64,000 bases of DNA from an uncultured Bacteroidaceae bacterium (GTDB lineage: Bacteria; Bacillota; Clostridia; Christensenellales; CAG-917): the NCBI GenBank assembly GCA_964563025.1, contig CAZLVK010000003.1, positions 84,061-148,060 of the forward strand. The letters run 5' to 3'. The translations under genes were made by a program, and so were the position numbers. Positions 15,194 through 37,396 of the stretch are shown piece by piece; within the stretch, counting starts at the first letter, position 1, and every line of letters starts with the position of its first letter. Under the pieces are notes generated by a model. It saw only the letters and a list, made by a program, of their open reading frames with translations. It ran no database searches and was not told the DNA's origin.

Positions 15194-15216
15194 CGATATG
15201 TAGATAAGTGCAAGTA

Positions 15217-15846
15217 TTACTCAAACGTTATCTTGGTCGAGGACGGAAGCCCTACGTAGGCCTTGAACGTTTCTACGATATTCTCGTCTTTGGTGTTCTT
15301 GGACAACTGCTGATTCGTGCCGAAAGTTATATTGGAGTCCGCGCCGACGATGAACTCGGTCACGGCGTTGCTACCCATAAACGCACCCGCGCCTAAAACG
15401 CACTGCGAACCGCTCTCGAACGTGACGGTAGTCAGTCTCGTCATACCCGAAAACGCACCCGCCTCGATGGACGTTATAGTGTTTGGAACAGTGAGTGTTG
15501 CGGGAATACTCTTGTTCGTCGTGTCCGCATAAAGAGAATTTGACACGGCTCTCACCGTTAGCGATTTGGTAGTGCCGTCTTGTTCGACGTCTATTGATTT
15601 GGGCAGAACGACGTCCTCGATAGCGGCGGCTTGTTTGAAGCCCGTAAGACGAGCACCGTCACTATAAGAGTCGGCGGTCATATACTTTGCGTAGACGTTC
15701 CAATCCGTCACTCCCACCTGCGGAGCGACCGTACTGTCCCCCTCTCCCGACGACCAACGAGAAAGAGTCACGCCGAGCACCGAGCCTAAACATGCAAGGA
15801 GCATAACGGAGACGAGTATTATTAAGATTTTCTTCTTGTTTTTCAT
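15217..15846 (-). CDS. Secreted BspA-type leucine-rich-repeat protein (209 aa)
   Basis: N-terminal signal/anchor helix. The LRR_5-like segment TLTVPNTITSIEAGAFSGMTRLTTVTFESGSQCVLGAGAF. AAGGAA RBS. 9-nt gap to the upstream gene. Confidence 0.7.
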   Translation of the reverse strand: MKNKKKILIILVSVMLLACLGSVLGVTLSRWSSGEGDSTVAPQVGVTDWNVYAKYMTADSYSDGARLTGFKQAAAIEDVVLPKSIDVEQDGTTKSLTVRAVSNSLYADTTNKSIPATLTVPNTITSIEAGAFSGMTRLTTVTFESGSQCVLGAGAFMGSNAVTEFIVGADSNITFGTNQQLSKNTKDENIVETFKAYVGLPSSTKITFE

Positions 15847-15855
15847 ACGCGTTCC

Positions 15856-16695
15856 TTACTCCGCTTCTGTTTGTTGCACGAGGCTGATTTCAAAGTTGAA
15901 GAAGAGGTTTACGTCCATAAGTTCGGGCGGAGTTTCCTCGTCCACGTTTTTGAAGTATACTGTGATGACGATCGTATGTTCCGAGCCCGAGAAAATATTT
16001 GCCTTAAGCGTCGTCGAAACGTCTTTATTATTTTCATTCGGCACATAAACCGTCGCTTTCTCTATCGTCTCGAAAGTGCCGTCGTCATTTTTGACTTTTA
16101 TCGTTTTCTCTTTGCTCGTGTACGCGTTATCCCCGCTGTTTTGCGTGAGGTTGAAAGCGTCCTGATCGCGGGTATACGAAGTCATCGCAACGACGAATTG
16201 TTCCTTGTAATCGGTGAGTGAATCGTTCACCGTTACGTTGCCGTTCTCGTCCGTAGAACGAGGATTTTCAAGGGTAACGGACTCGAGGGTGATTGCCACC
16301 TCCGAAGTGAGACCGTCCTGAGGTGCGCCCGAATATTGGAAATCGAAGGAGATATCCACTTGATTTGCAACGGATTTGAGAGTGCCGTTCTCACCTACGA
16401 TTGCTTCCGCGTCGGGTCCGATGACGGGGATCTTTGCAAGGCTTCCCGTGTGGTCGGCGAGAAGTACGCCCGGATTGATGATGGCGGGATGCAATTTAGA
16501 ACTGGTGTCGTCCGTCGAACTCGACTCACTGCCCGCAACTATCGTTGCGTTGCCCGAAGGTTGTTCGGATGAAATCGTGACGGTATTGTTCGCGCTCTTT
16601 ATATCGCCGAACCACGCCGCCGTCATACCGACTATGCCCACGATGACCGCAAGGAGCATAACCGCCGAAATCAAAATCAAACTTGACTTTTTCAT
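15856..16695 (-). CDS. TasA/camelysin-like protein with SipW-dependent-type signal peptide (279 aa)
   Basis: MKKSSLILISAVMLLAVIVGIVGMTAAWFGDIKSANNTVT compares with B. subtilis TasA ...GTWAAFNDIKSKDATFA. The C-terminus has an alternating beta pattern (LFFNFEISLV). GGAGG RBS. Confidence 0.7.
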   Translation of the reverse strand: MKKSSLILISAVMLLAVIVGIVGMTAAWFGDIKSANNTVTISSEQPSGNATIVAGSESSSTDDTSSKLHPAIINPGVLLADHTGSLAKIPVIGPDAEAIVGENGTLKSVANQVDISFDFQYSGAPQDGLTSEVAITLESVTLENPRSTDENGNVTVNDSLTDYKEQFVVAMTSYTRDQDAFNLTQNSGDNAYTSKEKTIKVKNDDGTFETIEKATVYVPNENNKDVSTTLKANIFSGSEHTIVITVYFKNVDEETPPELMDVNLFFNFEISLVQQTEAE

Positions 16696-16707
16696 AGGTT
16701 ACCTCCC

Positions 16708-17628
16708 CTAACTCTCGCTAATCGACACGACTTCGATTTGTATCTCGAAGGTGAAGGTTGCGCCGGCGTACGCGATTGCCGAATATTTGTTTATATCCGT
16801 CCACTTTGCTTTGAAAGTGCCGTCCTCTGCCGAATAATCATCATAAACTTGCGAAACCGTCTTTTCCCAATCGGTATCGCTATACTGCAACCAATAAAGT
16901 TTTTCGGGAGCAAAAACGATTGTAAACGTTGCATTCGTTTCGTTTGTTTCAAGGTTTGCCGAGGTTGCGGACAAGTTTATAGTGCTCGTAGTGTCAAAAC
17001 CGCTTGAAAGAGTTTTCGAGGATAACGAGGGAATTTCGCCGTAAGGAGTATAGGTCGTTCCGCCGTAACTGAGATACCAGGTGAAGCCGTAGGCAATATC
17101 CGACACTTCGTAACCGTTGCTATTCGGAATTTGTATGGTGAGAGAGGGGGCATCCGTTTTCGTTACGGTGACGGAGGAAAGGGAAATTCTGAGTTCTACC
17201 GTTTTGCCGTCGGTATCGAGACGGAGCGGAAGGCGTGCGCCCTTATTGGTCTCGTCTACATACGGTCCGAAAGCCTCGTCCTGCATATAGATGTTGTAAA
17301 GGGATGCGTCCTTTTCCAATTTCAAAACGTCGGTAGCGTATTTCGAGGTGACGAGATGTCCGCCGTCATCCCCTATCGGGAATTGGTTGTTGACCGTTTC
17401 GGAGCCCAAAACCGCTTTTTGTCCTTCGTACTTATTCGCTTCTTCGTTTATTACGAATTCGAGAGTGAAGATTTCGGCGGTTGACAAGTGGATTGTCGAA
17501 ATTTCGGACGTCACGGAATCCGAGAACCAAGCATAAGAAATCCCCGCCGCCGAGAGGGCGACTACCATAACCATTATCGGCACGAAAATGCCGTAAAAGT
17601 ATTTTTTGTAGGATTTCTTCTTTTCCAT
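16708..17628 (-). CDS. TasA/camelysin-like protein with SipW-dependent-type signal peptide (306 aa)
   Basis: Basic n-region, hydrophobic core, then ISYAWFSDSVTSE. C-terminal TFTFEIQIEVV. AAGGA RBS inside the end of the giant gene. 4-nt gap to that gene. Confidence 0.65.
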   Translation of the reverse strand: MEKKKSYKKYFYGIFVPIMVMVVALSAAGISYAWFSDSVTSEISTIHLSTAEIFTLEFVINEEANKYEGQKAVLGSETVNNQFPIGDDGGHLVTSKYATDVLKLEKDASLYNIYMQDEAFGPYVDETNKGARLPLRLDTDGKTVELRISLSSVTVTKTDAPSLTIQIPNSNGYEVSDIAYGFTWYLSYGGTTYTPYGEIPSLSSKTLSSGFDTTSTINLSATSANLETNETNATFTIVFAPEKLYWLQYSDTDWEKTVSQVYDDYSAEDGTFKAKWTDINKYSAIAYAGATFTFEIQIEVVSISES

Positions 17629-17632
17629 AGTT

Positions 17633-20600
17633 CTATCCTTGCGTTACGCTGTCCAACGTCGTAATCCAGTTGATGCTTTCATCGCTATATTTGAACGGCG
17701 TCGGAGTGGTTTCGCTTGCCGTAGCCGTGCGCACGTTGACAAAGTAGCCGTTCGAGGTCATAGAGCCGATGAACGCCTCGGGAGAGGACTTGAGTTCGTA
17801 ACCCGTGTACATAACGATATGTTTCTTCAACTCGAAGTTCATATAGTTGAACGCGTATATCAGGCTCAAATGTTGCTGATGCGCGATTCCTATACGGCTA
17901 TCCGTCGTGCCGTTTGCGTTGCCGACAAGTTCGCTGACGGTCGCCTTTTGGTAGGCGGTGGCTGTCTTGTTGGTATCTACGGTGATATTGGTCGTAGAGA
18001 GTTTGTAACCGAGCACGTGAGTGTCGATTATATCCGCGAGACGCATACTCTCTCTGGGTGCTACGTCTGCGGTTTCGCTTGCGCTTGCCTGAGGTTGAAC
18101 GTCCGAGACGAAGTCGTAAGTGCCATTCTGGTTAGCGGTTTCGCCCATAACACCGTTATTATAATTCGTATTGCTTCCGTTGTAAAGTTCGTCGTAGGAT
18201 TTTGCGGTGCCGTAAGCGTTGGACTTCGAGACGTAAGTGCCGTTGTTCACGCCGTAAATCGCTTTTTGGAGGTAGTAGCCGTCGGTGACCGTCGCACTGC
18301 CCGTATTTACCGCTCCGAGAATACCGCCCGCGTTTGCAGTAGAAGCGGTGACGTAGATTTCGCTGACGGAAACCACTCCGCTATAGGTATTGCCCGTATA
18401 CGCAAGACCGACTATACCGCCGACGTTAGCAGTAGAAGCGATGACCGTAATCGTCGCAATGACGGTTCCGCCGTAGACGGGAGTGTTCGATACGGTGGTT
18501 TCACCTATGGTGAAATCAGCAACGGACGCCTCGTCTTTGCCGACGAGACCGCCCGCGTTCACGGTTGCGCCGGACGTGACGGTTATCGTGCCGTGGAAGG
18601 TGCAATCGCTGAGGACGTTAACCGATTGGTTGTAACCGACGATACCGCCGACGTTGAGGGTACCGCTCGTGCGAGTGTCGTATACTTGGATATTCGCATT
18701 GCGGAGGTTGACGGATTTCACGGTGCTGACGTTCTCTACGCCGTCCGAAGTGCCGAGGTGCGCGAACATGCCGATATTCGCCGTATCCCCGCTCGTTACG
18801 GTTGCAAGAATGGTGAGATGGTTTATTGTGTACCCTGCGCCGTCGTAGGAGCCGTTGAAGTCGCCCGTGAAGACGGAGTCGCTGAGTATGACCACACTGC
18901 CGACCTTGAACAAGATTACGTTTGTGAGATAACCACTGCTTTCCCAATTTTCGCCGAACGCCTCTTTGATGATTTGAGCGTCTAAGTCGGTGACAATCAT
19001 ATCGAAATCGTTGACTTGCACGAAGTCGGTATAAGTAGGCACTTCGACCTCGATAGGTTGCCAGTAGTAGTAACCGTGTTTCTCTATGACATTTCCTTTT
19101 TCGTCTTCGATGAAGTAGTCGCCGTAAGCGGGTTCTTCGAGGTCGAGACCGGTGTCTTTCTTATATTGCTCGGCTATAGATTGATAAGTCGGATACGCGG
19201 AGTGCTTGGTTATGTCATAAGACTCGTTATACTTCGTATAGTACGCTTCGAGGAAGTCTTCCCACGTGGTCGGATAAGTCGTTACGTCGAGTTCTACGTC
19301 CGTAGGCACCGCCATAGGCACGACGACAAAGTTGTATGCTTTCTCGTCATCACCGCTCGTTTCGTCCGTTTCGTTCTTGAAGTTGCCCTTGTAGTACTCC
19401 GTTGCGATGAGCAAGCCCGCCGCAGAGCCGACTTGGTAACTGCCGTCTTTCACCACGAAGTAGCCGATGATGAGAGTGGGCTGGTTGCGGAGAGTGATAC
19501 AGAGGTCCTTGCCTGTTGCGGACGAGAGAGTCGCGCCGAGGTCGGATTTGGTCGTGCTACCGACGATACGAGTATACTTGGTGTATTCTTTTGCGGTGCC
19601 GTCGCTGTTCTTCATCCAGCCGTTGGCGACTTTCACCTCGACGTCAAGGTTCCAGCTCGAAGGCACGCGGAGAGTGCCCGAAACCTCAACCCAATCGGTG
19701 TTGTAGGTGTTGTCCGCATTTGCGTAACTCTGCGAAGTGTTGGAGTAATTCGCTTTTGCGGTGTACTTGGTGATTTCGATAGTGAGGTTAGACGTGTATG
19801 CACGGACGGAGTTTATCGTGCTACCGTTGGTGACTTCGGAACCGTTGCACAACACGTAAATTTGGGTGTTCTTGTACGTGTCGCCGATAGTGACGTTCGC
19901 AGAACCGCTCTTGCGATTGACGTACGCAATATAGTAGTTGAGATAACTACTGTTATCCGAAGACGAAAGTGCGACTTCGAGCATCTTGTTGTACGCACCG
20001 CCCGACTTATAGGTTTCGCCGTCCTTGAAGATTCCGTTGACGTATTCGTCGAAGCCCGCACGATTGGTTCTGTCCTCTTCTCTGAAGTTGACGGTGACTG
20101 TGATGCTCGCTTGATTTGCAACGAAACCGCTCACGGTGATACCCTTGCCGGTGCGTTGAGACTTGCTCTTGGCGGAAGTCGCCCCGCTCGATTCGACGGA
20201 TGCATATTCGTAGTTGTTGTCGAAGGACTTATACGCCCTACCGTTCGAATCGTTGAGAGTGACGGTGAGTCCCTTGGGCGTGATATGCGCAGTCGCGGAC
20301 GTCGTATAGGTATTGCCCGATGCCCACTCGTAATTCTTCGTGTCTTTAAGACTTGCGGTAAAGCGAACGGTGTATGCGTTTACGCCCGTCTTTGCGTTGG
20401 TGTCCGAAACGGCGGTTGAACCGTTCATATAAACCGCACTCGAAAGAGAAATTGCGCTCTTCGAGGTGTCGCCTTCGTTCGTCGTGGAAACTCTATAACT
20501 GGTCGTGCCGAAATTGCTATACGTCGAAGTGCCGTCGTATACTTTATCCCCGACCGTTCCCGTATAGGTGAACTCAATCTTGGATTTTGCAATGCTGTAG

Positions 20601-23600
20601 GCTTGAGTTAGACCGGTGCCGAGTTCGTAGTTGCCGACGACGGTATCGCTTCCGGTGGCATTGGTGCCGGACACGCTCGAAATTACGGTGACCTTTGCGG
20701 TGTAATCACCGGCATCCTTTTTTCTGAAATTGGTTGCGGTTAGTTCTACGGTTTCATTGTTGTCGAAGATATTCGATATGGTGAGCACACCGTTCGAGTA
20801 AGAAATATTGCCCGACGAAATGGTCTCTCCGCCGACGGTTGCGCCTGTGACGGACGGACCTTGTTCCTTGTTCAAGTATACGTAACTGCCGACGTCCCAA
20901 CTCGTGAGGTTGATTTTTGCAGGTTCTATCGTGAGGGTTGCGGTGCCCGAAGTCAGCCCGGTGAACACGATATCGTAGTTGTCAAGCCGATTTTCCGCCT
21001 TGGACAGACAGTCCGTTAAACGGTCGACGGTACCCGTACCGCTACCGCCGCCATCCGTTGCGAGAGTCGCGGTATAATTGCCTGCGTTGACTGCGACGTT
21101 GTTCGACACTCCGTCACCAGAATAAGTGACGTTGACTCTGAACGTGACTGTTTCTTTGCCGACGTCTTCGGTGTTGGTACTGCTCGTACCTTCCCCTGCC
21201 GAGGTATCGATATAGTGCGCCTTGCCGTCGTAGGTGACGGTGGTTGTTTTGAGCGTCACGCCCGACTTGGAAATTATATACTTGTCGATAGTCCAAGTAA
21301 ACGTGCCTGCGCCCGAAACGACGTAGTTCTTAGCGGCGCCCGTAGCCGAGGACGGTGCTTCTACCGTGACGGTATAAGTCGCGGCGTCGGTTGCTTGTAT
21401 GTCATAGTAAACCGAACTCGTTCCCTGCGACGTCATCTCGCCGACGGTGATGAGTTTGTCATTTGTACTACTGCCCACTTTAGCGGTTGCAGTGATAGTA
21501 AATGTGACGGATTGTGCATCGTTTCCGACAAAGCCCTCGTTGGTTCCGTTTCCGCCTATGGTTATCTTCGTGACGCCTTGATAAGAAGCACCGCCGTTGA
21601 ATTCGTACTCACCATCATTATTCTTTTCCGACCAAGTAGCCGTTACGGTGAGTTTACGTCTATTGACTTGGACGGTGAGAGTGGTTTCTGCAAGGGAGTA
21701 GTTTTTGCCTATATTGCTATCGTTGGTCGTGACGCCGACGCTGTGAGAGCCCGCGCCACAGAAGTAGACTCTGACGGTGTAGGTGTACGTTTGGACGGAC
21801 TCCGCCTTGCCGTATGCGCCGTCACTAAGGACGGTATAACCGCAATCGTTAACGTCTTTTGAACTCTCGCCGTCTTTATAAGAATAGTATGCCGTAGTGC
21901 TGTTTGTGCCGACGGTGGGCATACTACTGCTCTTTTCAACGGCTGTTACGGTCACGTTTTCCGCGGTCAAGCCGAGTATATTCTTCAAATCGTCGTTGTT
22001 TATGCATTCGTAGACGGAGTTTTCGACGATGAACTCGACGTAGTGCTTATATGTGCCGTCATATGTGCCGACAGTAGTGTTTGTGTTGTCGGTGAGCACG
22101 AGGTCGCGCTTGTTTATCGTCCACTTGTATTCGTTGTTTTTGGTGGAATCGACGGAACCGATTGTTATCTTGTTGCCTGCGGAGTCTACGAACCAGATAT
22201 TCGCCTTGACGTCGTAAGTGCCCGCGTCGGTGGCGGTGTTGACGGAGCCGTCCGCCGTGCCGTCGAAGTAGTAGTAGGATTGGTTCATCTTCGCGGAAGA
22301 GTCCACGGTTTCCGACGTCGTATTATAGGTCATACCGGTGATAGGCGCGTAGCGTTGCTGTCCGTTATACACAAGACCGGATTCCATAGTGGTCTTCTTG
22401 TAGTAGATGAGGACGTTGCCGACCGCGCCGTACTTGGTATTGTTGCCGTTTGCGTCCTTTTCGTATTGAGTGGTGTCCCAATCGAAGTAGATAGTACCGG
22501 TCGCACCGCTACTCGTCTTGCCGTGGACGGAGAGTGCGGAGTAGTCGGATTCGGCGTCGCTGTCGCCGGGGTTAGGCGTTGTGCCGTAGAAGTAGACGTA
22601 GTAGCCGGTGCCGTCGGGGACGGTGGCGGTCGTGTAGATATGACCGGTCTCGATTGCGCCACTGTTATAGGTCATCTGAGAGTCATTTATCTCGCCTTTG
22701 ACGGGAGTGTTCGCGATGATATTCCACTGTGCGAGTTCGCTACCCTGAATATCCACTTTGATACTGCCTACGTCGGTGGCATAGACGTAGAAGAAGCCGT
22801 GTTGTATATCCCCTGTCGTGTAGACGATATTACCGGCAGCGCCGTATGAGCCGTAGCCGAGAGCGGAGTTGTAGACAAGTTCGCTGTTATATGTCGTGGC
22901 GAGTTCAGCCCAACTTGTATATCCGAGAGCGGAAGGCTCGTCGGGGTGCGCGGACATATACGCCAACGAGAAGTTGAGTGTGTTCGCGGGAGTGCCGATA
23001 ATAGCGGTATATTTATACGAAGTCGAGGACGTAGTAGTCCACTCTGATTCATTGCTATCGTAGGTGGACGTCGTAGTGACGGTGGTAGTCTTGTAGTAGA
23101 GCGTGGTGCTCATACCCGCTTTGTTATTTGCGTTTATAGCGGTGCCGTTGTCGTCGCTATATAATTGACCGTATTTGGTGGTGGATATAGTCTTAATTTC
23201 GGTATCGGTATTTGTGACCGTTTCAAACGTAGTTTCAGCGTCCAAATACGTGCCATAGCCCGACTTATCTTCTTCACCCGCAACGTTGAAAGCCGCGTCG
23301 AGAGTACCGCTGATATTGTCGGGATCCACCTTGTTGAGGGTGTTGTTGTCGGACTCTTTAATCCAATAGGAGCCGTCGGTGTAGGTGTAAGAGTCGTCGG
23401 CGTAGGTAGCCGCGTATCCGACGATACCGCCGTAAGTGGATTTGCCGTTTTTCAGAGAGCCGATGACTTCGCCTTTGACGTTGAAACAGTTGACGATTGA
23501 CGCCTCGTCGGTGACCGATGAGCCGTTGTAGCCGACGATACCGCCGACGTTATAGCGACCGCTGACGGTGGAGAGATAGACGAGCATATTGTCGATGATG

Positions 23601-29600: not shown

Positions 29601-32600
29601 GAATACGTGCCGTTATACGACCAAGTATCCGCATCGGAGTTTTCCGCGTTTTCGAGTGCGATAACGTTCGAGCCCCAGACTGCGCCCACGATACCGCCGA
29701 TATAGTTTTGTCCGCTGATATTCGACAAATTTCGCGCTATTTCGGGAGCGAATTTGGTTATGTTCGTCGAAGACGTATCGGTATCCTTGCCGATTGCGCC
29801 CACGATACCGCCGACGTATTCGCTATCCGTGTTTGTCGAAATCGTGGCGTAGTTGACGAGTTTCAGCACCTTGTCGCCGTTGTTGCCGACGACGTACGTG
29901 CTACCGCCCGCGTCGTAGCCCGCGCCTTGCTCGATTGCGCCGATGAACCCGCCGACGTAGTTCGCACCCGCAACGGTGAGGTATGAAGAACTGCTGATAT
30001 TGCCGTATAGTTCACTGCCCTTGCCGAGATAGCCGACTATCGAGCCGACGTAATCATTTCCGCCAACGGTGTATGCTGTTGTGCCCGATGCGTTCACGTA
30101 GCAAGAGTCGATGACTGCGTTATTTGCGTATCCGACGACACCGCCGACGTAGTCTCCGCCACCCGAATTGACGTTGCCGAGCACCGCGATATTCTTGACG
30201 CCCGCCTTGCTACTATTGCCGTAGACGTAACCGAACAAGCCCAAGAAATGGCGGTTTGTTCCGTCTGCATAATTGAGGTGGTCGCCTATCGTGATACTTC
30301 TGGTAGTCGTCGAAATGTCGCTTTCGATATTACCGCCGAAGTAACTGACTGAGGTGCTCTTCGGAGAGGTTGCGGAAGTCACGCCTTGGTTATACGACGT
30401 CGCACTGCCTATCGCATACCCGCCGATCGGGTTGAAGATTATGCCGTCGGGTATCGCTATATCCGCCGTCACCACGAAGTAACAGCCGTCGTAGAAAATC
30501 GTCTTTGCGTTGGTATCTGCGCTCGTGAGTTTCGAGTAGTTCTTGACCGAGTCAATCGGTTGCATAGTGCCGTTGACTATGTCGCTGAGTCTTTGGAGAT
30601 AAATCCAGTTGCTGATGACGAACGGATTGCTTTCGCTACCCCAGGTCTTATCCCTCGTCTTTCCGTCGAGGACGCCGAAATCCGAGTCGATGAGCGTGTA
30701 GTAGAGAGTGACTTCACCGGTGAAGTTTCCGCTACCCTCGAATTTCGTCCATTGTTTTTTCTGCAATCTGTCCACAAGGACGCCGTCCGAAGTGGCGGGC
30801 GTGGAGTGCGTGACGGTAATCGTAGCATAAGTGTAGCCGGAACCGTACATATAAGCATTGCTGACGTTTGTCAAATAGCCGTTTGCATCTCTCGCCTTTC
30901 TATCGCTGACGATATAGAATTTCGTCTTATATCCGCTCCAAGTGTTGCTATCGTATTCTATAACGCCGATTTCGGTATTATCCTTAAACGATGTGATATT
31001 GTAAAGGAAACTATACTTTGACATTCCGTATGCAGATCCGCTGTATCCGTAGACCGCATCCGACGAAGATATGTCGTAAGGCTGTATCGTCACGCCTTGA
31101 TTGTTGAGTTTTTGACCGAAAATTTGACTGCTTGCTTTGATTTCGACCTTATACTTAAATCCGCCGGTGCTGACGTTTACGTCGTCACCGCTTGTTGTCG
31201 TGAAAACAGCAGAGTACCCGGTTATATTCCCATTCCAATTATAATACTTGATTTTGCTTTCGTGTTCATATATAAGGTTCACATTGTCGGTGCCGTTATT
31301 GTATGTGATATTTTCTATCGCAGCGAAACGCACGTCGATATTGCCCGCAAAATCGGATTTATATTTGATTTTGCCGAACGTCACCGAGCCGTCAGAGTTG
31401 GCGGTAGTATTCTCCAAAGAATTCGGAGTCGCATAAGCACCGAGCGACAGAGTACCCGAAATCACGTTGCTTGCCTTACGTAAAGACAAGTAGTTGCCGT
31501 TTTCCGTCTTTACACCGCTCGCTATATAGAAACCGTTTATATCCTTAGTTTTGATATTATCCCACGAAGAACAATCCGTAAACGTACTTCCGCTCACCGT
31601 GCAGGGATAGACCTTTTGACTAATATTCGAGTATATAAGCACGTATTTGCCCGTCGAGGCTGTTGTACCGGTATTGTGATCGGTGTAGACCGAGCCGTAG
31701 TAGAACGCCCAACTGTCCGTCGTCGTGCCCGCCGTCGTGCCGACAATACCGCCGACGTTAGAGCCACTGGTTGCTTCAATTTTGCTCGAACTGTCTATCT
31801 CGACGTAGCAATTCGTGATAGTGTTTCCACTGCCCCCGCCGACTATACCGCCGACGTATTGGTAGCCGGAAATTACACTCTTATTGTAGCAATACGTGAA
31901 CGCAACGTTATTTGCGGAACCGATTATACCGCCCGTGTAGTTTCCATAGGCGGTGACCTTCCCCGTATTCACAAGGTGTGCGAAAGTCCCTCTGGTCGTA
32001 GCATTGCCCACAAAACCGCCCGTGTAGTCACCGTTGCTACGCTCACCGGTGTTTGTGTTGTAACTTCCGCCCGTAATGACACCGGTGTTGACGTTTGAAC
32101 CGGTAAACACAACTTCCGTGCCTTCGCCTATGAAACCGCCTACGCGATTGCCCGTGCCGACTATCGTGCCGGAGTTAGTGCAATTATTGAACGTGGTCTT
32201 TTGGGTTGCATACCCGACGAAACCGCCGACATAACTACCCCATGCACTGATTGACTTTGTATAGGTCAGTCCGCTGAAAGTGAACTCTACCGCACTGTGA
32301 CCGATATAACCGCCGATTTGGCTGTAACCGTAAATGTTGGAATCTGCATAAATACCCGACACGTCCGCGCTCGAATTGTAGCCGATGACGCCACCGGTGT
32401 AATTTGCACGATATAAGTTCCCGCCGATAGTGGTAACGCCCGAACGACAATTCTTAATCGTGCCGGTATTGTAGCCGACGACACCGCCGACGTAACCGCC
32501 GTTTACGACGTTGAATATGCTACCTGTGCTAATAATATTTATATCTGCTTTTCCTATAAGCGTACCGCTATTATATCCGACGACACCGCCGAGCATACCG

Positions 32601-35600
32601 ATACTCTTATATTCCGTGCCGTTTATGGTGACGTCTTGTGCGGTTCTGCCGATGATATTTGAGGTGATAGGAGTGGTCGAGCAATTCGAGAAATCGAGCG
32701 TAACGTCTATATTTGCGCCGACCGCACCGCCGAGAACAACGCCGGTATCGCGAGTACTGCCCGCTATATTGCCTTCGTTAGCGTCGAGTTCGCCGGCGAC
32801 GAGAGTGCCGTCACTGAACGTAATCGTCGCGCCACCCGTCGTATAGCCGAAAATACCACCGCCGAATGCACCGATATGCGAAACGACTTCTTTATTGTCG
32901 TAATGCCAAACCTCTTTATCATCTTGATAGTCTTGCGTGTAATATGTATCATCGTACATATAGCCAACCTTGAAAATACCGGTGAGGTTTTTGCCGTTGG
33001 TGTCGAGTTGCCCGGCGATACCGCCTACGTAACTGCTACCCGCGACCGTGCCGTAATGTTCGAGAGTGACGTTGGTTGTGTCCGCATTGAGCGTCCACTT
33101 GCCGACGATACCGCCGATATAGTCGTTACCGCTGACGATTGCGGTATTGCGCAGATTTGCCCCGCTTGCGATAGCGTTTTGTACATTGCTGATTTCACCG
33201 ACAATACCGCCAACGTAGTCGTGACCGATTATTCTGCCCGAGTTGTTGCCGTTTATGGTTCCGTATTCGATTCTTCCTGCTATACCGCCCGTATAATTAT
33301 AGCCCGTGACGGCGCCCGTGTTTGAAGTAGTGCTCGGGAGAGTGCTGCCGTACAAAAAACCTGCAATGCCACCGACGTAAGATACATTTTCGGCAGAGAT
33401 TTCTCCTTCGTTCGATACGGTTCCGCCGTTGATTTTGGTATCTTGCGAGAAGCCAAAAATACCGCCCGCGTAATTGCCCGAGCCGTTTGCGGTGATTTTC
33501 CCCGTATTCTTGACGGAAGTGGTGCTTGTGTCAAAGATGACTTGACCTTTGATAGTGGTTGTTGTCTTGCCATCAACTGTAGTAGTATATTTATAGACCG
33601 CCGAATAGCCGATGATACCGCCGACTTGATAACTGCCGGTGACTGCACTTTGGTTTTCTACGGTGCCGGTGAAGTTTGCAAAGCAAAGGTAGCCCGCCAC
33701 ACCGCCGACCGAATGACCTGTTGCGGAGATAGTGCCTTTGTTTGTGACGGTATTGAACGAAATTGTAGTAGCCCAAGAAGAGTTTGTGTCGTCGGAATAT
33801 CCGGTTGCGTAGCCGACGAAACCGCCGACGTAGTTCACGCCCTCGACGGAACCGCTGTTCGTGCAATTCGAGAACGAAAGTGTGTCGTCCGCAGTCGCGC
33901 TCTTGAAGTAGCCGACGTAACCGCCTGCGTAATCACCCGTAGCCTTAACGGCAGCGGAGTGGTTGTTGCTCGTGCTGAACGACTTCGTCGTATATCCGAA
34001 ATATCCGCCGACGTAACTCACGCCGTAAACCGCGGAATGGACGTATGCTCCCGTAACGGTGCCTACGTTATATCCCGCAATACCGCCCGTATAATTCTCC
34101 CAATAATTTGAGGTGCCGACCTGAATGCTGGTTTCGCAATTTTTTATTGTTCCGGCGCTCGCGTTGTAGCCGACGATACCGCCGACGTAGTCTCCGCGCG
34201 TGCCTTTGAATTTGAGTATAACCGAGAAAAATTCCGGTTTGACGTCATATATCGTTACCAAATCGACGCCACTTTTGCCTGTGATAGTACCGGCGTTGTA
34301 TCCGACGACACCACCAAGCATTGCGACGTTTGAAAATGTGGTGTCACCGATTGTTTGCGTTCTGGAAATTCTACTAATTATGCTTATATTGAGAGGCGTG
34401 GTCGAGCAATTCGAGAAATCGAGCGTAACGCCTATATTTGCGCCGACCGCACCGCCGACAAAGTTACCCGTATCTTTTCCTATACTTTCACATGCGTCTA
34501 TTTGTCCCGTAACGATGGTGCCGTTCTCGAACGTAATCTTCGCACCACCCGTCGTATAGCCGAAAATACCGCCGGCAAACGAGCCCGTGTGCGCAACTAT
34601 TTCTTGACTATTATTCCCAGAACTGTCGAGAGCCGTGTAATTCGTTCCGCCGTACGTCGTGCCGACCTTGAAAGTGCCGGTGAGGTTTTTGCCGTTGGTG
34701 TTGAGGTTGCCGACTATTCCGCCGACGTAACTGACACCCGCGACCGTTCCGTAATGTTCGAGAGTGCCGGCTGTGGTATCCGCATCGAGTGTCCAGTTGC
34801 CGACGACACCGCCTACGTTTTCACTATAGAGGAAGTCAAACTCTGAAAATTGGAGTTTACCGCTACCATGAGTGCCGTTGTCTATATAGACATAATAATA
34901 TATATAATCGTAAGTTTTATCGAGGTTATAATTTTTCCTATAATAATTGGTTGAACCAAGCCCTATATCTTCGCTTGAATAAATCTTCGTCCACTTGTAC
35001 CCGTCAGTATTATAATCTTCTTTGTCGGGGTATTCGTAGTTACCGCCACCCGTTGGATACGTAGTTTTGAAATTGTTTGTATAAGCGCCCCAAATGTATA
35101 TGCGTTTAGGCATACGGTTGGTTTGGGAAGCCGTATCGTTAGCGTTCGTTATGCTGAAACCGCTGATTAGCGTACCCGACGCGACTTGCATTACGAAACT
35201 CATCGAGCCTTTTTCTTCGGAGTAATACTTCGTCCCTGTGCTTCCGTCGTTGATTTTATCGATAGTCTGATCCGAGTACCCGTAGGCGTCGTATTGAACA
35301 ATAGAATAATCCTTGTCCCCACCATAAGTCGCAGAGCCGATAACGGAGCCGGTGTTTCTTGCGTTTATAACCGAGCCTTTCGCCATATAACCGACGATAC
35401 CGCCGACGTTTATACCGCCGTTGATCGTCCCGCTGTTTTCGCAAGCCGACGTGTTCCCTATCGTAAGAGTTGAGTAACTGAACCCGACAAGACCGCCTAT
35501 GCCCCTCTGTCCCGTTATAGCACCGCTGTTGCTACTGCCGTTTATCGTGACCGTACTTGTCGCATTTGCGTATCCGACAAGACCACCTACGCACGAACGA

Positions 35601-37396
35601 GTATTGCCAGAGCTATCCGTAGTAATGCTTGTGCCCGTGACGGTTGCTTCGTTTCTGCAACCCGAAATGGTGAGTGTTGCGCCATCCGCAAAACCTACGA
35701 GACCGCCGACCTGAATGCCCGCGGTGACTGAACCTTTGGTGGTGCAATTCGTAATCGTGACCGTACCCGAGACGTGCCCAGCGAGCACTGCGTGGGAGTT
35801 TGTCGAAGTCCCCGAGCAAGTGCCGTTGACTGTGAGGTCGTATATATTAGCCCCGCTGCCGAGGTTTCCGAACAACCCCGAATATTTCTGATCGGGAATG
35901 ACCAACCCGCTGATTGTACAGCCGTTGCCATTTATCGACCCTTTGAATTGACTTAATTCTGTGCCTATGGGTGTGAACGACGGACCAATGAAATCCAACT
36001 CAGCCATTTGGATTGTACTTCCGCTATTACACTCTGCGGTAATATTAAAATATCGATAGCAACCTAAATTCGATAGCGTGCCGGTGAAATATTGACTGCT
36101 TGACTTATCGTATTCGTCGGGCAGTGAGGTCGTAAGCGTAACCCAATTTATATTGTCGTTTGAGCCTTTTATCGTGATGCTTTTGAATCTACGGTCATTG
36201 TATTTTGATTCTGTATCGGCACCGTTGTATAGTCGGTACTTTCGGACCGATATTGCGTAGCCGTAGTCTATCTTGACGTCCAGTTTGCCATTCGTACTCT
36301 GGCAATACTTTGTGCTTATGTCTCCGTCAAATAACTTAGCAATTTCTTCACCCGAATTACCTTCGGTTGCGACAGATAAAACCTCTGCTTCTTTCATGCT
36401 ATAGATTCTATCCGAATCATCGCTTAGCATATCGATTGTGCGCCCGCCGGCTGAATATGCGGTTTGTCCGTTAGCCGAATTAGGTTCTACGATATAATAC
36501 GCCGAAACAAAGTCTGAATCTCCGCGATTTACCTTGTCCGAGAATAAATCGAAGTCCGAACGATTGCGGAGTTTATACGGATCTGCTTCCGTTCCGCTTC
36601 CCGGCAAAGAATACGTGCCCTCTATAGAGATTGAAATATCTCTGACTTGTGCAAGGTGTCTTACCTTGTTCTGGTATGAGCCCGATTTCCTTGTAAAACT
36701 ACCGGTAAGTCTAATCTGAATACTTCCACTGCTGTCAACCGTAGCTGTAAGAGAATTTGAACCCGAACTTGTTTCTTTCTTGTCTCTGTTTCCGTACTCA
36801 CTTGCCTTAACCGAAGCGACATTCACAGACGATGAACCGGCTATTACCGAAAGAGTTGCCGTTGATGTGTGTGTCTTATTGTTAGAACTATTACTACCTG
36901 CCGTCTTTGCATAAATATAACCGGTACTGACGTTAATTTTCGTAATGGTCAAACCCTCTTCGGGAACGAGCGTCAAATATGAATATCCACTATACGAATA
37001 TTCGGCTTTATCAGCGCTGTTTGCTTCTATACCCGCGCCGTCGCCGTCCAAAATCGTTGTATATTTAATAGTAGGGCTGGATTGATCAGTGCATACGTAA
37101 GTCCAATAGCCTATTGCAGCCTCTTTTGTGCTGTCATCTGTGTTGTCCCAAGTTTCGTCGAGAGAAAAAGTCGTGCCGTCGATGGCGGAGGCAGAAATAA
37201 TGATTTTGTTGCTACTGTCGATGGAGTAGTATTTGCCAGCGGTAGCGTCGGCGGTTTGGGAACCGCTCTCATTGATTACGTCAGTGTAGAGAATTGCGGA
37301 GAGAGTGACTCCGAGGACGAGGGTGAAGAGCAAAGCAAAAACAGCGAGACGAGTCGCTTTGGTGATGAATGAAGTTTTTGCGCTTGCTGATTTCAT
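17633..37396 (-). CDS. Giant surface protein (6,587 aa): N-terminal signal-anchor, GLUG-motif beta-helix arrays, two discoidin-like domains, YDG/MBG-like repeat region
   Basis: One uninterrupted ORF. Very many GG[IVLF][VAIF]G...(N/S)C repeats typical of GLUG-motif beta-helices. Start set at ATG 37396 (MKSASAKTSF, AAGGA RBS) because the first 22 codons of the tracked ORF lie inside an intergenic repeat. Confidence 0.85.
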   Translation of the reverse strand: MKSASAKTSFITKATRLAVFALLFTLVLGVTLSAILYTDVINESGSQTADATAGKYYSIDSSNKIIISASAIDGTTFSLDETWDNTDDSTKEAAIGYWTYVCTDQSSPTIKYTTILDGDGAGIEANSADKAEYSYSGYSYLTLVPEEGLTITKINVSTGYIYAKTAGSNSSNNKTHTSTATLSVIAGSSSVNVASVKASEYGNRDKKETSSGSNSLTATVDSSGSIQIRLTGSFTRKSGSYQNKVRHLAQVRDISISIEGTYSLPGSGTEADPYKLRNRSDFDLFSDKVNRGDSDFVSAYYIVEPNSANGQTAYSAGGRTIDMLSDDSDRIYSMKEAEVLSVATEGNSGEEIAKLFDGDISTKYCQSTNGKLDVKIDYGYAISVRKYRLYNGADTESKYNDRRFKSITIKGSNDNINWVTLTTSLPDEYDKSSSQYFTGTLSNLGCYRYFNITAECNSGSTIQMAELDFIGPSFTPIGTELSQFKGSINGNGCTISGLVIPDQKYSGLFGNLGSGANIYDLTVNGTCSGTSTNSHAVLAGHVSGTVTITNCTTKGSVTAGIQVGGLVGFADGATLTISGCRNEATVTGTSITTDSSGNTRSCVGGLVGYANATSTVTINGSSNSGAITGQRGIGGLVGFSYSTLTIGNTSACENSGTINGGINVGGIVGYMAKGSVINARNTGSVIGSATYGGDKDYSIVQYDAYGYSDQTIDKINDGSTGTKYYSEEKGSMSFVMQVASGTLISGFSITNANDTASQTNRMPKRIYIWGAYTNNFKTTYPTGGGNYEYPDKEDYNTDGYKWTKIYSSEDIGLGSTNYYRKNYNLDKTYDYIYYYVYIDNGTHGSGKLQFSEFDFLYSENVGGVVGNWTLDADTTAGTLEHYGTVAGVSYVGGIVGNLNTNGKNLTGTFKVGTTYGGTNYTALDSSGNNSQEIVAHTGSFAGGIFGYTTGGAKITFENGTIVTGQIDACESIGKDTGNFVGGAVGANIGVTLDFSNCSTTPLNISIISRISRTQTIGDTTFSNVAMLGGVVGYNAGTITGKSGVDLVTIYDVKPEFFSVILKFKGTRGDYVGGIVGYNASAGTIKNCETSIQVGTSNYWENYTGGIAGYNVGTVTGAYVHSAVYGVSYVGGYFGYTTKSFSTSNNHSAAVKATGDYAGGYVGYFKSATADDTLSFSNCTNSGSVEGVNYVGGFVGYATGYSDDTNSSWATTISFNTVTNKGTISATGHSVGGVAGYLCFANFTGTVENQSAVTGSYQVGGIIGYSAVYKYTTTVDGKTTTTIKGQVIFDTSTTSVKNTGKITANGSGNYAGGIFGFSQDTKINGGTVSNEGEISAENVSYVGGIAGFLYGSTLPSTTSNTGAVTGYNYTGGIAGRIEYGTINGNNSGRIIGHDYVGGIVGEISNVQNAIASGANLRNTAIVSGNDYIGGIVGKWTLNADTTNVTLEHYGTVAGSSYVGGIAGQLDTNGKNLTGIFKVGYMYDDTYYTQDYQDDKEVWHYDNKEVVSHIGAFGGGIFGYTTGGATITFSDGTLVAGELDANEGNIAGSTRDTGVVLGGAVGANIDVTLDFSNCSTTPITSNIIGRTAQDVTINGTEYKSIGMLGGVVGYNSGTLIGKADINIISTGSIFNVVNGGYVGGVVGYNTGTIKNCRSGVTTIGGNLYRANYTGGVIGYNSSADVSGIYADSNIYGYSQIGGYIGHSAVEFTFSGLTYTKSISAWGSYVGGFVGYATQKTTFNNCTNSGTIVGTGNRVGGFIGEGTEVVFTGSNVNTGVITGGSYNTNTGERSNGDYTGGFVGNATTRGTFAHLVNTGKVTAYGNYTGGIIGSANNVAFTYCYNKSVISGYQYVGGIVGGGSGNTITNCYVEIDSSSKIEATSGSNVGGIVGTTAGTTTDSWAFYYGSVYTDHNTGTTASTGKYVLIYSNISQKVYPCTVSGSTFTDCSSWDNIKTKDINGFYIASGVKTENGNYLSLRKASNVISGTLSLGAYATPNSLENTTANSDGSVTFGKIKYKSDFAGNIDVRFAAIENITYNNGTDNVNLIYEHESKIKYYNWNGNITGYSAVFTTTSGDDVNVSTGGFKYKVEIKASSQIFGQKLNNQGVTIQPYDISSSDAVYGYSGSAYGMSKYSFLYNITSFKDNTEIGVIEYDSNTWSGYKTKFYIVSDRKARDANGYLTNVSNAYMYGSGYTYATITVTHSTPATSDGVLVDRLQKKQWTKFEGSGNFTGEVTLYYTLIDSDFGVLDGKTRDKTWGSESNPFVISNWIYLQRLSDIVNGTMQPIDSVKNYSKLTSADTNAKTIFYDGCYFVVTADIAIPDGIIFNPIGGYAIGSATSYNQGVTSATSPKSTSVSYFGGNIESDISTTTRSITIGDHLNYADGTNRHFLGLFGYVYGNSSKAGVKNIAVLGNVNSGGGDYVGGVVGYANNAVIDSCYVNASGTTAYTVGGNDYVGSIVGYLGKGSELYGNISSSSYLTVAGANYVGGFIGAIEQGAGYDAGGSTYVVGNNGDKVLKLVNYATISTNTDSEYVGGIVGAIGKDTDTSSTNITKFAPEIARNLSNISGQNYIGGIVGAVWGSNVIALENAENSDADTWSYNGTYSGDDVYTVAGTDNIGGIAGYLGAGNNLFTRVFSTATVSGGSFVGGLVGQVKGGSFVSCFVSEPGTKTVEAGTDKVNANTQYAGGLAGSADGANVSFTDCYVQGFNWSRVSASSGGVAGYASSTVKFENSWALYLADGADYTTVSPNANGKYIIADSNFATSTANIYEMAIFAGLLTSTAQYSAGKTNTSYLGKGIIPLGVTLPTPGTLSDATTKAQIVFYDASGTETATDNKFDAENDSASASMIYIYLGVDAESMSVCARQVVFNNVSDYTSETAWENAYLSLTKPIQNREKQYTADVTLTNTAGPYAGTFKISFIANYTVSGSTVTGTAVFVSRNVSFSYKNNTEVAPLIINDMDDWTSFANAVRGTDGTYTGYVKLTANIGTTSNPVTLPAGYNSTSDVNKFRFGGTFDGNGYTITVRLWASALGSNNEIGLFPQAAGATFKNLTIAGSVGVVKLDENNNPTADASASGNDIGAFVGIARGDLTFLNCKNQAYVSGGLGHNTGGLVGTAHDDNDDDGTAGPLTYNVTFVDCVNEGTVISAGNYGSKGEVSFGVGGIMGTTGSDIGSEVTFESCRNAAAVASDANVGGILGVSANECIIRNCGNTGNIIGTDDTDDTCVGGIAGIGTEAGSLNIYASYNSGQVVAQGNKAGGILGGDSEYTSASGTTCIYYCYNTGSVYTGGLTARTKGGVGVQAGGIIGTMTDVDIQYCYNVGTITANGIVYLGANTQPEARVGGIAGYSSSGAKIKMDYCYNVGLIVIGANLDTTWFNEEKNEADYGAGIIGLITGNFYNSNVTIGDHNFSLKWQVYRPNKSSGTGNKPDGGKSGTNYKNYKWQTYCEYETNYSYSGTILPSIADLTAAYFSGSSERIVPLTANRNYNSCTANDESNSTVTFGATGSAAVMNTKGTKTYGGATTVTATGVNTGIENGSLGGYIYVYGCLPQLACFALDTKNGLAMTSMGYGYDEVNEQYVLQPAGGEHNPYIIKDGIDLMSLTAITQPNPSHYDFDGEYIEFADSTNNLAGDICTYINLPTDENGLANAYKFANNGGTLTEGKSYHIYKYGAVIQRKKNYYETGTNSYTQWKNRNTYYDESSSAFTASTATAPISAVNYYPVGMFGNSADRTFKGTINGSLKTINANNIHQTDWDGTSKAEVRGLKLDRTIGHSADIYAGLFAFIEDATVANIKVSGTITGRAISSGKNVHAGLVGYAMGESVLDGLETASLTIQAINKTGNTRTNAVGGILGVAEPAKEETITIKNCIVGSANVVGDTKIIGFGPNIGGIIGVSSSRTKDEVAADASAQVIVENCNVRSAEVNSDKAVGTLVGGIVGKCDDVGSLTVTGSSVGSIGTTTTSTDNQKVKIYGSYSIGGIAGNAVANANSNMAFIDCTVYGDVLIQRIGTTNDGTFGTAIGGIVGYISNDATAFSLFRGTLGFHGTIDATLASTEKVYNIGGAVGYMGTSAVFDSIDVHIYGKINTPTSGTVENVGGFAGYGAGGTLDGTFFVAPTLSCANANYVGGFIGLNGGNTAITRTSEIYTAKEDGTSGKASTKGGAITGKYYVGGFIGGNTASGDNGLYIGAKEFLGASYGSDGDFAIIELYSSVDGKAYIGGFLGRNEGNLYGEYCQVNNYGQVGASSTGTSSNYVEIIGGIVGSNGGSAKISFGTDATFQNDGQVGNSTYKTAYQKFVGGILGANAGAFANSGTLVNTGSVYGYEYVGGAIGLLISGNISGKLANGVKADGTAFAMDSDALACTDSTTGNASVTAVSNVGGVIGAMLGGASITATTATTELYNYGKVTATADISNAGGIIGLMYGKIEGTSANKVTFANYGEVNANSFAGGIIGVVDGLVNYASFTNYSASMTFGGNTAMGGAIGLITTGYGNDYYPTTTLGESVSSTVPKYADNNQSTHITDSYFAYEPATEGNTVSVTATGTTPDTPYTINNKNYAGGLGGVIGVIDASDIDDKADWSGNSYYVNGSVYGTGVDGVGGFVGAINGAKVIIDNMLVYLSTVSGRYNVGGIVGYNGSSVTDEASIVNCFNVKGEVIGSLKNGKSTYGGIVGYAATYADDSYTYTDGSYWIKESDNNTLNKVDPDNISGTLDAAFNVAGEEDKSGYGTYLDAETTFETVTNTDTEIKTISTTKYGQLYSDDNGTAINANNKAGMSTTLYYKTTTVTTTSTYDSNESEWTTTSSTSYKYTAIIGTPANTLNFSLAYMSAHPDEPSALGYTSWAELATTYNSELVYNSALGYGSYGAAGNIVYTTGDIQHGFFYVYATDVGSIKVDIQGSELAQWNIIANTPVKGEINDSQMTYNSGAIETGHIYTTATVPDGTGYYVYFYGTTPNPGDSDAESDYSALSVHGKTSSGATGTIYFDWDTTQYEKDANGNNTKYGAVGNVLIYYKKTTMESGLVYNGQQRYAPITGMTYNTTSETVDSSAKMNQSYYYFDGTADGSVNTATDAGTYDVKANIWFVDSAGNKITIGSVDSTKNNEYKWTINKRDLVLTDNTNTTVGTYDGTYKHYVEFIVENSVYECINNDDLKNILGLTAENVTVTAVEKSSSMPTVGTNSTTAYYSYKDGESSKDVNDCGYTVLSDGAYGKAESVQTYTYTVRVYFCGAGSHSVGVTTNDSNIGKNYSLAETTLTVQVNRRKLTVTATWSEKNNDGEYEFNGGASYQGVTKITIGGNGTNEGFVGNDAQSVTFTITATAKVGSSTNDKLITVGEMTSQGTSSVYYDIQATDAATYTVTVEAPSSATGAAKNYVVSGAGTFTWTIDKYIISKSGVTLKTTTVTYDGKAHYIDTSAGEGTSSTNTEDVGKETVTFRVNVTYSGDGVSNNVAVNAGNYTATLATDGGGSGTGTVDRLTDCLSKAENRLDNYDIVFTGLTSGTATLTIEPAKINLTSWDVGSYVYLNKEQGPSVTGATVGGETISSGNISYSNGVLTISNIFDNNETVELTATNFRKKDAGDYTAKVTVISSVSGTNATGSDTVVGNYELGTGLTQAYSIAKSKIEFTYTGTVGDKVYDGTSTYSNFGTTSYRVSTTNEGDTSKSAISLSSAVYMNGSTAVSDTNAKTGVNAYTVRFTASLKDTKNYEWASGNTYTTSATAHITPKGLTVTLNDSNGRAYKSFDNNYEYASVESSGATSAKSKSQRTGKGITVSGFVANQASITVTVNFREEDRTNRAGFDEYVNGIFKDGETYKSGGAYNKMLEVALSSSDNSSYLNYYIAYVNRKSGSANVTIGDTYKNTQIYVLCNGSEVTNGSTINSVRAYTSNLTIEITKYTAKANYSNTSQSYANADNTYNTDWVEVSGTLRVPSSWNLDVEVKVANGWMKNSDGTAKEYTKYTRIVGSTTKSDLGATLSSATGKDLCITLRNQPTLIIGYFVVKDGSYQVGSAAGLLIATEYYKGNFKNETDETSGDDEKAYNFVVVPMAVPTDVELDVTTYPTTWEDFLEAYYTKYNESYDITKHSAYPTYQSIAEQYKKDTGLDLEEPAYGDYFIEDEKGNVIEKHGYYYWQPIEVEVPTYTDFVQVNDFDMIVTDLDAQIIKEAFGENWESSGYLTNVILFKVGSVVILSDSVFTGDFNGSYDGAGYTINHLTILATVTSGDTANIGMFAHLGTSDGVENVSTVKSVNLRNANIQVYDTRTSGTLNVGGIVGYNQSVNVLSDCTFHGTITVTSGATVNAGGLVGKDEASVADFTIGETTVSNTPVYGGTVIATITVIASTANVGGIVGLAYTGNTYSGVVSVSEIYVTASTANAGGILGAVNTGSATVTDGYYLQKAIYGVNNGTYVSKSNAYGTAKSYDELYNGSNTNYNNGVMGETANQNGTYDFVSDVQPQASASETADVAPRESMRLADIIDTHVLGYKLSTTNITVDTNKTATAYQKATVSELVGNANGTTDSRIGIAHQQHLSLIYAFNYMNFELKKHIVMYTGYELKSSPEAFIGSMTSNGYFVNVRTATASETTPTPFKYSDESINWITTLDSVTQG
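32110..33130 (-). repeat. Intragenic duplication, copy B (~340 codons)
   Basis: The protein segment NDYIGGIVGKWTLNADTT...TTFNNCTNSGTIVGTGNRVGGFIG is collinear with copy A. A 59-nt stretch (32675-32733) matches 34400-34458 with 1 mismatch. Confidence 0.8.
33800..34820 (-). repeat. Intragenic duplication, copy A (~340 codons)
   Basis: ENVGGVVGNWTLDADTT...LSFSNCTNSGSVEGVNYVGGFVG is collinear with copy B. They also share ccacccgtcgtatagccgaaaatacc (34546-34571 and 32831-32856). Confidence 0.8.
34825..35290 (-). other. Discoidin (F5/8 type C)-like domain 2 inside the giant protein
   Basis: TIDKINDGSTGTKYYSEEKGSMSFVMQVASGTLISGFSITNANDTASQTNRMPKRIYIWGA...LQFSEFDF resembles the carbohydrate-binding discoidin pattern. 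Confidence 0.55.
35985..36400 (-). other. Discoidin (F5/8 type C)-like domain 1 inside the giant protein
   Basis: EIAKLFDGDISTKYCQSTNGKLDVKIDYGYAISVRKYRLYNGADTESKYNDRRFKSITIKGSNDNINWVTL...IQMAELDF. Confidence 0.6.

Follow-up and report, generated by a model that had tools for sequence, protein, structure and literature searches.

Within the 64,000-nucleotide (nt) stretch of contig CAZLVK010000003.1 (assembly GCA_964563025.1) analyzed here, referred to below as the window, a giant surface protein is encoded at the head of a four-gene cluster on the minus strand. The giant gene (17633-37396; 6,587 amino acids (aa) by its open reading frame (ORF) and translation) is followed on the same strand by three small genes, whose products are tentatively referred to as A (16708-17628; 306 aa), B (15856-16695; 279 aa), and C (15217-15846; 209 aa). 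An initial annotation, made from the sequence alone, described four co-directional ORFs separated by 4, 12, and 9 nt, each downstream ORF having its own ribosome-binding site (RBS), and no terminator ahead of the end of C; our reading of the coordinates and junctions agrees with it on all of these points. The TAG of the giant gene is separated by a 4-nt gap from the ATG of A, with AAGGA overlapping the 3' end of the giant gene, the TAG of A by 12 nt containing GGGAGG from the ATG of B, and the TAA of B by 9 nt containing AAGGA from the ATG of C. A terminator-like hairpin (GCCACGC-AAA-GCGTGG and a T-run; 15178-15194, minus strand) lies just 3' of the C stop, at the end of the four-gene unit, and the only other hairpin candidates within the operon are two weak 5-bp stems in the 5' end of A. 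The genes for the giant, A, B, and C are thus closely packed into a single unit in which the start sites are coupled. The most likely start of the giant is the ATG at 37396, as it has AAAGGA 6 nt upstream, and the extension from the alternative TTG at 37462 runs across a copy of a dispersed repeat discussed below. The best sigma-70-like promoter match 5' of the giant gene (TTGCCA-17-TAAAAT; 37584-37612, minus strand) is a match to the consensus only.

The giant protein is rich in G, T, S, and N, and consists of an N-terminal signal/anchor helix (approximately residues 14-38), a head of about 485 aa with a discoidin-like domain (Pfam F5_F8_type_C_2, E = 6e-5), and then GLUG-type beta-helix blocks and repeat regions. 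It contains 66 GG[ILVFM]xG motifs arranged in blocks, vs. 1.5 expected from shuffled sequences, and so carries the repeated GLUG motif by which GLUG-repeat beta-helix proteins (PF07581) are recognized. The Pfam Glug model itself gives a borderline score (20.3 bits against a cutoff of 20.5), and a faint Glug match is also found in one relative, while PDB sequence searches with both halves of the protein returned no meaningful relatives. The only hydrophobic segment of the giant is the N-terminal one. Neither a C-terminal anchor nor an LPXTG motif was found in the giant, and none of the four proteins has a C-terminal hydrophobic segment. In agreement with the initial annotation, no gene for an S26 signal peptidase, a sortase, or a secretion component was detected when every large ORF of the window was scanned against Pfam, and no S26/S24 peptidase is present among the window ORFs of at least 150 aa. 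The combination of LPXTG, hydrophobic tail, and sortase gene that defines sortase-anchored Gram-positive pili and adhesins is therefore lacking here.

We searched for relatives of this cassette through A or B, and found the order giant-A-B-C at every locus with enough upstream DNA, that is, at 19 loci representing about 8-9 independent lineages; conservation of the four-gene neighborhood had been named in advance as a check on the initial annotation. In these relatives the genes likewise lie on one strand with tiny gaps or overlaps, even though A is only 28-75% identical and all four proteins drop to 26-35%. Of the two loci reached through the most distant B relatives, one (L020; HMMER E = 3.6e-8) has the full giant-A-B-C layout, and the other (L019), on a 2.3-kb contig, shows at least B with an LRR_5 protein next in order. 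The downstream neighbors differ by lineage, and include a CLC channel with NusB and exonuclease VII, MgtC with a Dabb protein, or, in the closest relatives, a MoxR-VWA operon. Relatives of A or B without a giant gene were never seen where upstream DNA is present. The giants themselves range from 5,300 to 7,250 residues, are collinear over their last 1,000-3,000 residues with 26-66% identity, and in all lineages the alignment reaches to within 10-100 aa of the C-terminus; because of this collinearity they are considered orthologues rather than arbitrary large proteins. A homologue search with residues 1-330 of the giant returned only two fragments. On these comparative grounds, giant-A-B-C is best regarded as a real inherited module that has been kept across deep divergence. 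It is conserved and so far unannotated in uncultured gut and rumen Clostridia (Christensenellales-like), and no description of the cassette was found in the literature searched.

A separate observation concerns L020, which comes from Logan run SRR10277277, the same sample as a locus identical to the window (L008), so that two giant-A-B-C cassettes, very divergent from each other, are present in this single run. The cassette at L020 may be an additional copy in one genome, or stem from another organism.

Proteins A and B share the same layout. In A, a K-rich n-region and a hydrophobic helix lead to G-I-S-Y-A/W-F-S-D (the slash marks the putative cleavage site), followed by a conserved arm (residues 31-58) and a beta-sandwich body. 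In B, the corresponding segment reads G-M-T-A-A/W-F-G-D-I-K-S, the arm spans residues 25-71, and the beta-sandwich body ends in a conserved C-terminus (VDEETPPEL...F-N-F-E). The basic n-region, hydrophobic core, and following motif reported earlier for the 306- and 279-aa products are indeed present, as ISYAWFSDSVTSE in A and MTAAWFGDIKSANNTVT in B. Residues A33, W34, and F35 are invariant across 23 A relatives, and T25, A26, A27, W28, F29, and G30 across 25 B relatives, and these motifs are therefore family features rather than chance resemblances. Protein C begins with a related signal (G-V-T-L-S-R-W), and across lineages A, B, and C have in common a K-rich start, a hydrophobic helix of about 20 residues, and the signature G(-5)-x-[ST](-3)-x-A(-1), which is followed by W-F in A (S-Y-A/W-F-S) and B (T-A-A/W-F-G-[DN]), and by x-W in C. 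The arms are the most conserved part of A and B, with 32% of the arm columns of A at least 90% conserved vs. 17% of those in the body, and 30% vs. 13% in B. The AlphaFold models of A and B are of moderate quality (mean predicted local distance difference test (pLDDT) 63 and 69, respectively; predicted template modeling score 0.63 each), and show an N-terminal helix (continuous over residues 6-30 in A and 4-27 in B), a low-confidence stretch of 30-45 residues (pLDDT <50), and a beta-sandwich with a long final strand. A pLDDT below 50 despite the highest conservation would be expected of a segment that becomes ordered only on a partner, and the conserved stretch after the putative cleavage site, unstructured in the models, thus fits a docking arm.

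A profile built from 51 members of the B family matches A (29.3 bits, E = 1.9e-8 among the window ORFs) over A residues 20-254, and A and B are thus remote paralogues, beta-sandwich proteins of a small closed family. Only 23 relatives of A were found in 5.8 billion proteins, and 38 relatives of B in the same kind of homologue search; an exhaustive HMMER profile search with B gave 70 cluster representatives among 1.84 billion, the non-fragments all being 200-335 aa long. No Pfam family was found for either protein, and PDB sequence searches with A and B, or with profiles of A, B, and A plus B, yielded nothing meaningful. We also considered whether A, B, and C might be type IV pilins, an idea prompted by a weak archaeal pilin-like match (8fk7, E = 1.4). 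It was rejected, since no prepilin-peptidase site is conserved: neither a G/F-T-L-x-E site nor an archaeal K-G/A site ahead of the helix is kept in A, B, or C, and Pilin_N matches only 1 of the 51 B-family members (E = 0.06).

Besides its signal, protein C has a conserved arm (GD..AP...DWN..KY) and one BspA-type leucine-rich repeat (LRR) region, which matches Pfam LRR_5 (PF13306) with 25.9 bits (E = 1e-5; gathering cutoff 27.7). Its orthologues match LRR_5 too, the match at L019 not being flagged as weak and the others being weak or faint, and C is probably a small BspA-type LRR protein. The window also contains a stand-alone small LRR_5 protein (45595-46188, minus strand; 197 aa as listed) weakly related to the LRR region of C, for which an internal start yields a lipoprotein-like signal ending ...FVAC.

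The initial annotation proposed that A and B are TasA/camelysin-like proteins, and the N-terminal region does agree with that of TasA. The TasA sequence used for comparison matches PDB entry 8aur_A over residues 28-261; mature TasA accordingly starts at A28, and the SipW cut is T-W-A/A-F-N-D-I-K-S. Protein B has T-A-A/W-F-G-D-I-K-S in the same register, and the cleavage-site motif of A and B together can be written in the TasA/camelysin register as [ST]-x-A/x-F-x-[DNS]. The donor strand of TasA is formed by residues 28-38, directly after the SipW cut, and the N-terminus of TapA is employed in a similar way (PMC9674648). The C-terminal F-x-F-E strand of A and B also resembles the FSFEATQ of TasA. 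As for the related motifs reported just after the N-terminal helix of the giant and its truncated paralogue (LSAILYTDV and LVTAFDVD), both are present; they do not fit the x-F-x-D register, and that part of the claim is weak.

It is perhaps safest to regard A, B, and C as exported proteins that serve as accessory subunits of the giant adhesin. More specifically, we favor a mechanism, to which we would assign a probability of roughly 0.4, in which the giant, A, B, and C would all be exported by Sec, and a type I signal peptidase, which may be of the SipW type and encoded in another part of the genome, would cut A, B, and C at the conserved [ST]-x-A. Once released, the N-terminal arms could dock as strands on a partner subunit, much as the donor strands of TasA and TapA do, giving a short hetero-oligomeric adaptor that would hold, cap, or nucleate the giant GLUG beta-helix adhesin in a cell where neither a sortase signal, an SLH domain, nor any other wall anchor is available to it. 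The giant would contribute reach and binding domains (discoidin, GLUG beta-helices, and repeat modules), and C may add an LRR binding surface. This mechanism is suggested by the operon anatomy, the gene order kept in all sufficient loci, the collinear giants, the paralogy of A and B and the small closed B family, together with the N-terminal signature of A, B, and C, its TasA register, the highly conserved arms that are left unordered in the models, and a giant that has no anchor beyond its N-terminal helix.

Several results weigh against this mechanism or against its TasA-like part. Peptidase_M73 (PF12389) matches neither A nor B at E ≤ 1, nor any of the 51 B-family members at E ≤ 0.1. TIGR04088, which represents the SipW-dependent signal class, scores 16.1 bits for A and 13.7 bits for B against a cutoff of 19, and at E ≤ 0.1 it matches 5 of the 23 A members and 1 of the 51 B members, none of which reaches the cutoff. 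Foldseek searches with the A and B models gave no match at E ≤ 0.001, TasA and donor-strand pilins included: for A, the TasA fiber 8aur_A ranks 16th (E = 2; template modeling (TM) score 0.18-0.23, with moderate models) and the best match is the CfaB pilin (E = 0.17, non-significant), and for B, 8aur_A is outside the top 50 and generic beta-sandwiches are returned. At loci with gene tables, none of the genes called up to 10 kb from the cassette is a sipW or has a signal-peptidase Pfam match. The hydrophobic helices, about 20 residues long and unusually conserved, would fit uncleaved membrane anchors equally well. Finally, near-equimolar coupled translation argues against a long homopolymeric fiber. 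In addition, hhalign comparison with TasA aligned only 32-34 signal-peptide columns (probability 6-20%) and nothing for A, and PDB profile searches with A, B, and A plus B did not find TasA. As every formal TasA test fails, A and B should not be filed as members of the TasA/camelysin family, although the moderate quality of the models leaves the negative outcome of the fold search provisional. The likeness of A and B to TasA appears to be limited to the cleavage-site region and the C-terminal F-x-F-E strand, so that of the earlier claims the shared A-x-F-x-D register and the strand likeness hold, while membership in the SipW-dependent class by TIGR04088 is not supported, and homology of the mature domains was not detected by hidden Markov model (HMM), profile, or fold search. 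The TasA-like label itself was not upheld by either the HMM searches or the structure comparison that had been proposed to check it.

The conservation of the helices leads to an alternative in which they are not cleaved at all, and A, B, and C are type II signal-anchor proteins whose helices pack together and with that of the giant as a membrane platform, with W-F at the interface. The hydrophobic segments of 19-25 residues are long enough to be read in this way, helix residues are kept in relatives of 30% identity (M21 and G29 in A; M13, L15, V19, and G23 in B), the modeled helices are continuous, the sole possible anchor of the giant is its N-terminal helix, and no dedicated peptidase is encoded in the window. 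However, the invariant G(-5), [ST](-3), and A(-1) constitute a textbook type I signal-peptidase site in the register of the experimentally cleaved TasA, and conservation peaks after this site and not in the helix, so we consider a membrane platform unlikely, though deserving of serious attention. It is also conceivable, if improbable, that A and B are true but very divergent TasA/camelysin subunits, cut by a SipW encoded elsewhere and forming a donor-strand-exchange fiber that carries the giant. Apart from the agreement at the cleavage site and the F-x-F-E strand, TIGR04088 is the top NCBIfam match of A, though below cutoff, operons of paralogous TasA-like proteins do exist (e.g., sipW-bsaABC; PMC7395162), and the top non-significant fold matches of A are donor-strand pilins. 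This is countered by the lack of a Peptidase_M73 match in the 51 B-family and 23 A members, by the failures of TIGR04088, hhalign, PDB profile, and Foldseek comparisons described above, by the 70 HMMER clusters, which contain no bridge to the large TasA family, and by the lack of a sipW gene linked to the cassette at any locus with a gene table.

Coupled expression with a 6,587-residue Sec substrate and a gene set strictly kept together would also be expected if A, B, and C were extracytoplasmic chaperone-like helpers for folding or export of the giant that remain outside the final structure. They show no similarity to PrsA, accessory Sec proteins, or chaperone families, however, and an LRR protein and two beta-sandwich proteins look more like structural or binding parts, which leaves such a role with a slim chance. 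That the three are independent secreted binding proteins merely sharing the promoter of the giant is very improbable: lone small LRR_5 proteins such as the one at 45595-46188 do occur in the window, but the order and spacing of the module are kept at 26-35% identity beside unrelated downstream genes, and A and B relatives are not seen apart from the giant where upstream DNA is present. Among these readings, docking of cleaved A, B, and C through their arms remains the one we favor.

The head of the giant may be exchangeable. A divergently oriented, truncated paralogue of the giant (38081-39874, plus strand; 597 aa) resembles the giant in its signal helix; its head is of a different kind and carries Listeria-Bacteroides (Flg_new) repeats. 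Its end (...YQFKGSFVLS, followed by the stop codon) corresponds to the exact point where the first GLUG block of the giant starts. A 16-nt repeat, TCAATTCAAAGGGTCG, is located at both boundaries. One copy (35936-35951, minus strand) lies where the head of the giant passes into the body and encodes QFKGS in frame (aa 483-487), and the other (39844-39859, plus strand), inverted relative to the first, is in frame five codons ahead of the stop of the paralogue. These two identical copies are the only ones in the window, where 0.04 would be expected. In a related strain (L021), a giant-type head occupies the truncated slot beside a trpB-like gene, and its homology to the giant stops exactly at the repeat (L021 1523-1538); the repeat and the tail are identical to the window at 31 of 31 positions vs. 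a background of 81-90%. A third strain (L142) has a giant-type head with a paralogue-type start, opposite yet another head type. Further, when strains are compared, the codons for the signal peptides of both divergent genes form mosaics whose breakpoints differ (regions compared: window 38081-38207 vs. 37270-37396; L021 90-216; L142 1915-2041 and 1063-1189). The mosaic codons indicate that the 5' ends of the divergent pair have recombined or undergone gene conversion more than once, and the patterns as a whole suggest that recombination exchanges the N-terminal head of the adhesin with that of the truncated paralogue. A possible route is an inversion of about 3.9 kb (35936-39859), by which the alternative head would become joined in frame to the giant's body.

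DNA-inversion cassettes that swap part of a surface protein are known from the R64 pilV shufflon and the sap inversion of Campylobacter fetus. The present locus resembles these in having an oppositely oriented truncated copy, a short in-frame repeat, and the alternative combination in relatives. It differs in that the N-terminal head would be swapped and no recombinase gene was found nearby, nor anywhere in the window, and the arrangements here are known from different strains instead of both orientations in one population. A metagenome scan for the 16-nt repeat returned chance matches only, none homologous to the locus, a 16-mer being too short for a collection of this kind.

A second inverted repeat was considered as a candidate inverton. 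It is 55 nt long, with copies at 37418-37472 and 39884-39938, and was rejected because its core recurs at 51619-51653, making it a dispersed element resembling repetitive extragenic palindromic (REP) sequences. The core, GAGATTGCCACGCAACTCCGTTGCTCGCAATGACA, thus occurs in three copies, two of which form the 55-nt inverted pair around the promoter region of the giant and the paralogue.

Taken together, it is possible, though we regard it as rather improbable in its entirety, that the locus encodes an undescribed Gram-positive appendage, in which a GLUG adhesin of several thousand residues would be held or nucleated by a short TasA-style donor-arm hetero-oligomer of A, B, and the LRR protein C without a sortase or an adjacent SipW, and with a head switchable by inversion with a silent divergent cassette.

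Among characterized systems, the tapA-sipW-tasA operon of Bacillus subtilis, which encodes the TasA fiber and its nucleator TapA (PMC9674648, PMC10151520), is similar in having several small exported beta-rich proteins per operon, the [ST]-x-A/x-F-x-D register, and a C-terminal F-x-F-E strand; the segment conserved right after the cut in A and B is also the one that serves as the donor strand in TasA and TapA. However, the mature domains have no homology detectable by HMM, profile-profile, or fold search, there is no sipW in or beside the present operon, and TasA systems have no counterpart of the 6,587-aa lead protein. From gene order and coupling, a complex of roughly 1:1 stoichiometry would also seem more likely here than a homopolymer. 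The sipW-bsaABC(RSD) locus of Clostridium perfringens (PMC7395162, PMC11580942) is likewise a sortase-independent clostridial operon with three small secreted proteins, one of which polymerizes while the other two improve the yield. Unlike the present cassette, BsaA requires an adjacent sipW and a two-component system, both missing here, and has no giant partner; no sequence similarity was found.

Gram-negative donor-strand pili (CfaB/CfaE of class 5 CFA/I, and PapK of the P pilus) are also built from beta-sandwich subunits with an N-terminal extension, and are the top non-significant Foldseek neighbors of A and also among the matches of B (E = 0.05-0.3, TM score <0.4). In contrast to these pili, no chaperone or usher is present here, and the host appears to be a monoderm of the Clostridia type. 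With the giant adhesins of Gram-positive bacteria and gut anaerobes, the system shares its Glug, F5/8 type C, Listeria-Bacteroides repeat, and LRR_5 modules, an N-terminal Sec signal, and extreme length. It differs from them by the lack of an LPXTG, SLH, or choline-binding anchor, and by the fixed trio of small proteins of unnamed families that always follows.

Immediately downstream of C lies the gene for a 395-aa protein (D; 13933-15120, minus strand), with a promoter-like site and an RBS of its own. D combines a transmembrane helix at the N-terminus with a globular domain, is more conserved than A-C (38-88% identity in relatives), and has no Pfam, NCBIfam, or PDB sequence match. D lies downstream of the cassette at loci L006, L009-L014, and L016, is inverted in L015, and is absent from L001 and L003. 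Since its position is not kept in all lineages (it may be missing, inverted, or displaced), we treated D as a neighbor and not as part of the module, and it is probably a separate unit. A GSHD motif in D is reminiscent of phosphatidylinositol-specific phospholipase C (PI-PLC) X domains; as neither a family model nor a PDB sequence backs this resemblance, no claim is made. Further along the minus strand, a Bat-like operon (5458-13521) encodes a 504-aa multi-pass membrane protein, a MoxR AAA+ ATPase, a DUF58 protein, a BatA/VWA protein, and a 904-aa VWA protein. Its MoxR-DUF58-BatA-VWA portion (5458-11967) was considered as part of the module and rejected, as it is linked to the cassette only in close relatives. 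Downstream of the VWA genes are two large ORFs (1743-5567, minus strand; 735 and 534 aa) without a Pfam match.

The window has strong Shine-Dalgarno sites and a split GcvPA/GcvPB, and the more distant relatives of the cassette are from Christensenellales and Clostridia. This suggests that the Bacteroidaceae label of the closest metagenome-assembled genomes is wrong.

Little is understood of the way in which Clostridia of the gut and rumen present very large adhesins in the absence of a sortase, SLH, or other known anchor. As the constant companion of one giant-adhesin family, the A-B-C trio provides concrete candidates for anchoring or assembly factors, and A and B represent two protein families not yet covered by a Pfam or NCBIfam model. 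If the arms are indeed donor strands, the assembly principle of TasA and TapA would also apply to hetero-complexes that include giant proteins. Exchange of head cassettes, as seems to occur here, would be a further means of varying binding specificity in abundant uncultured rumen bacteria.

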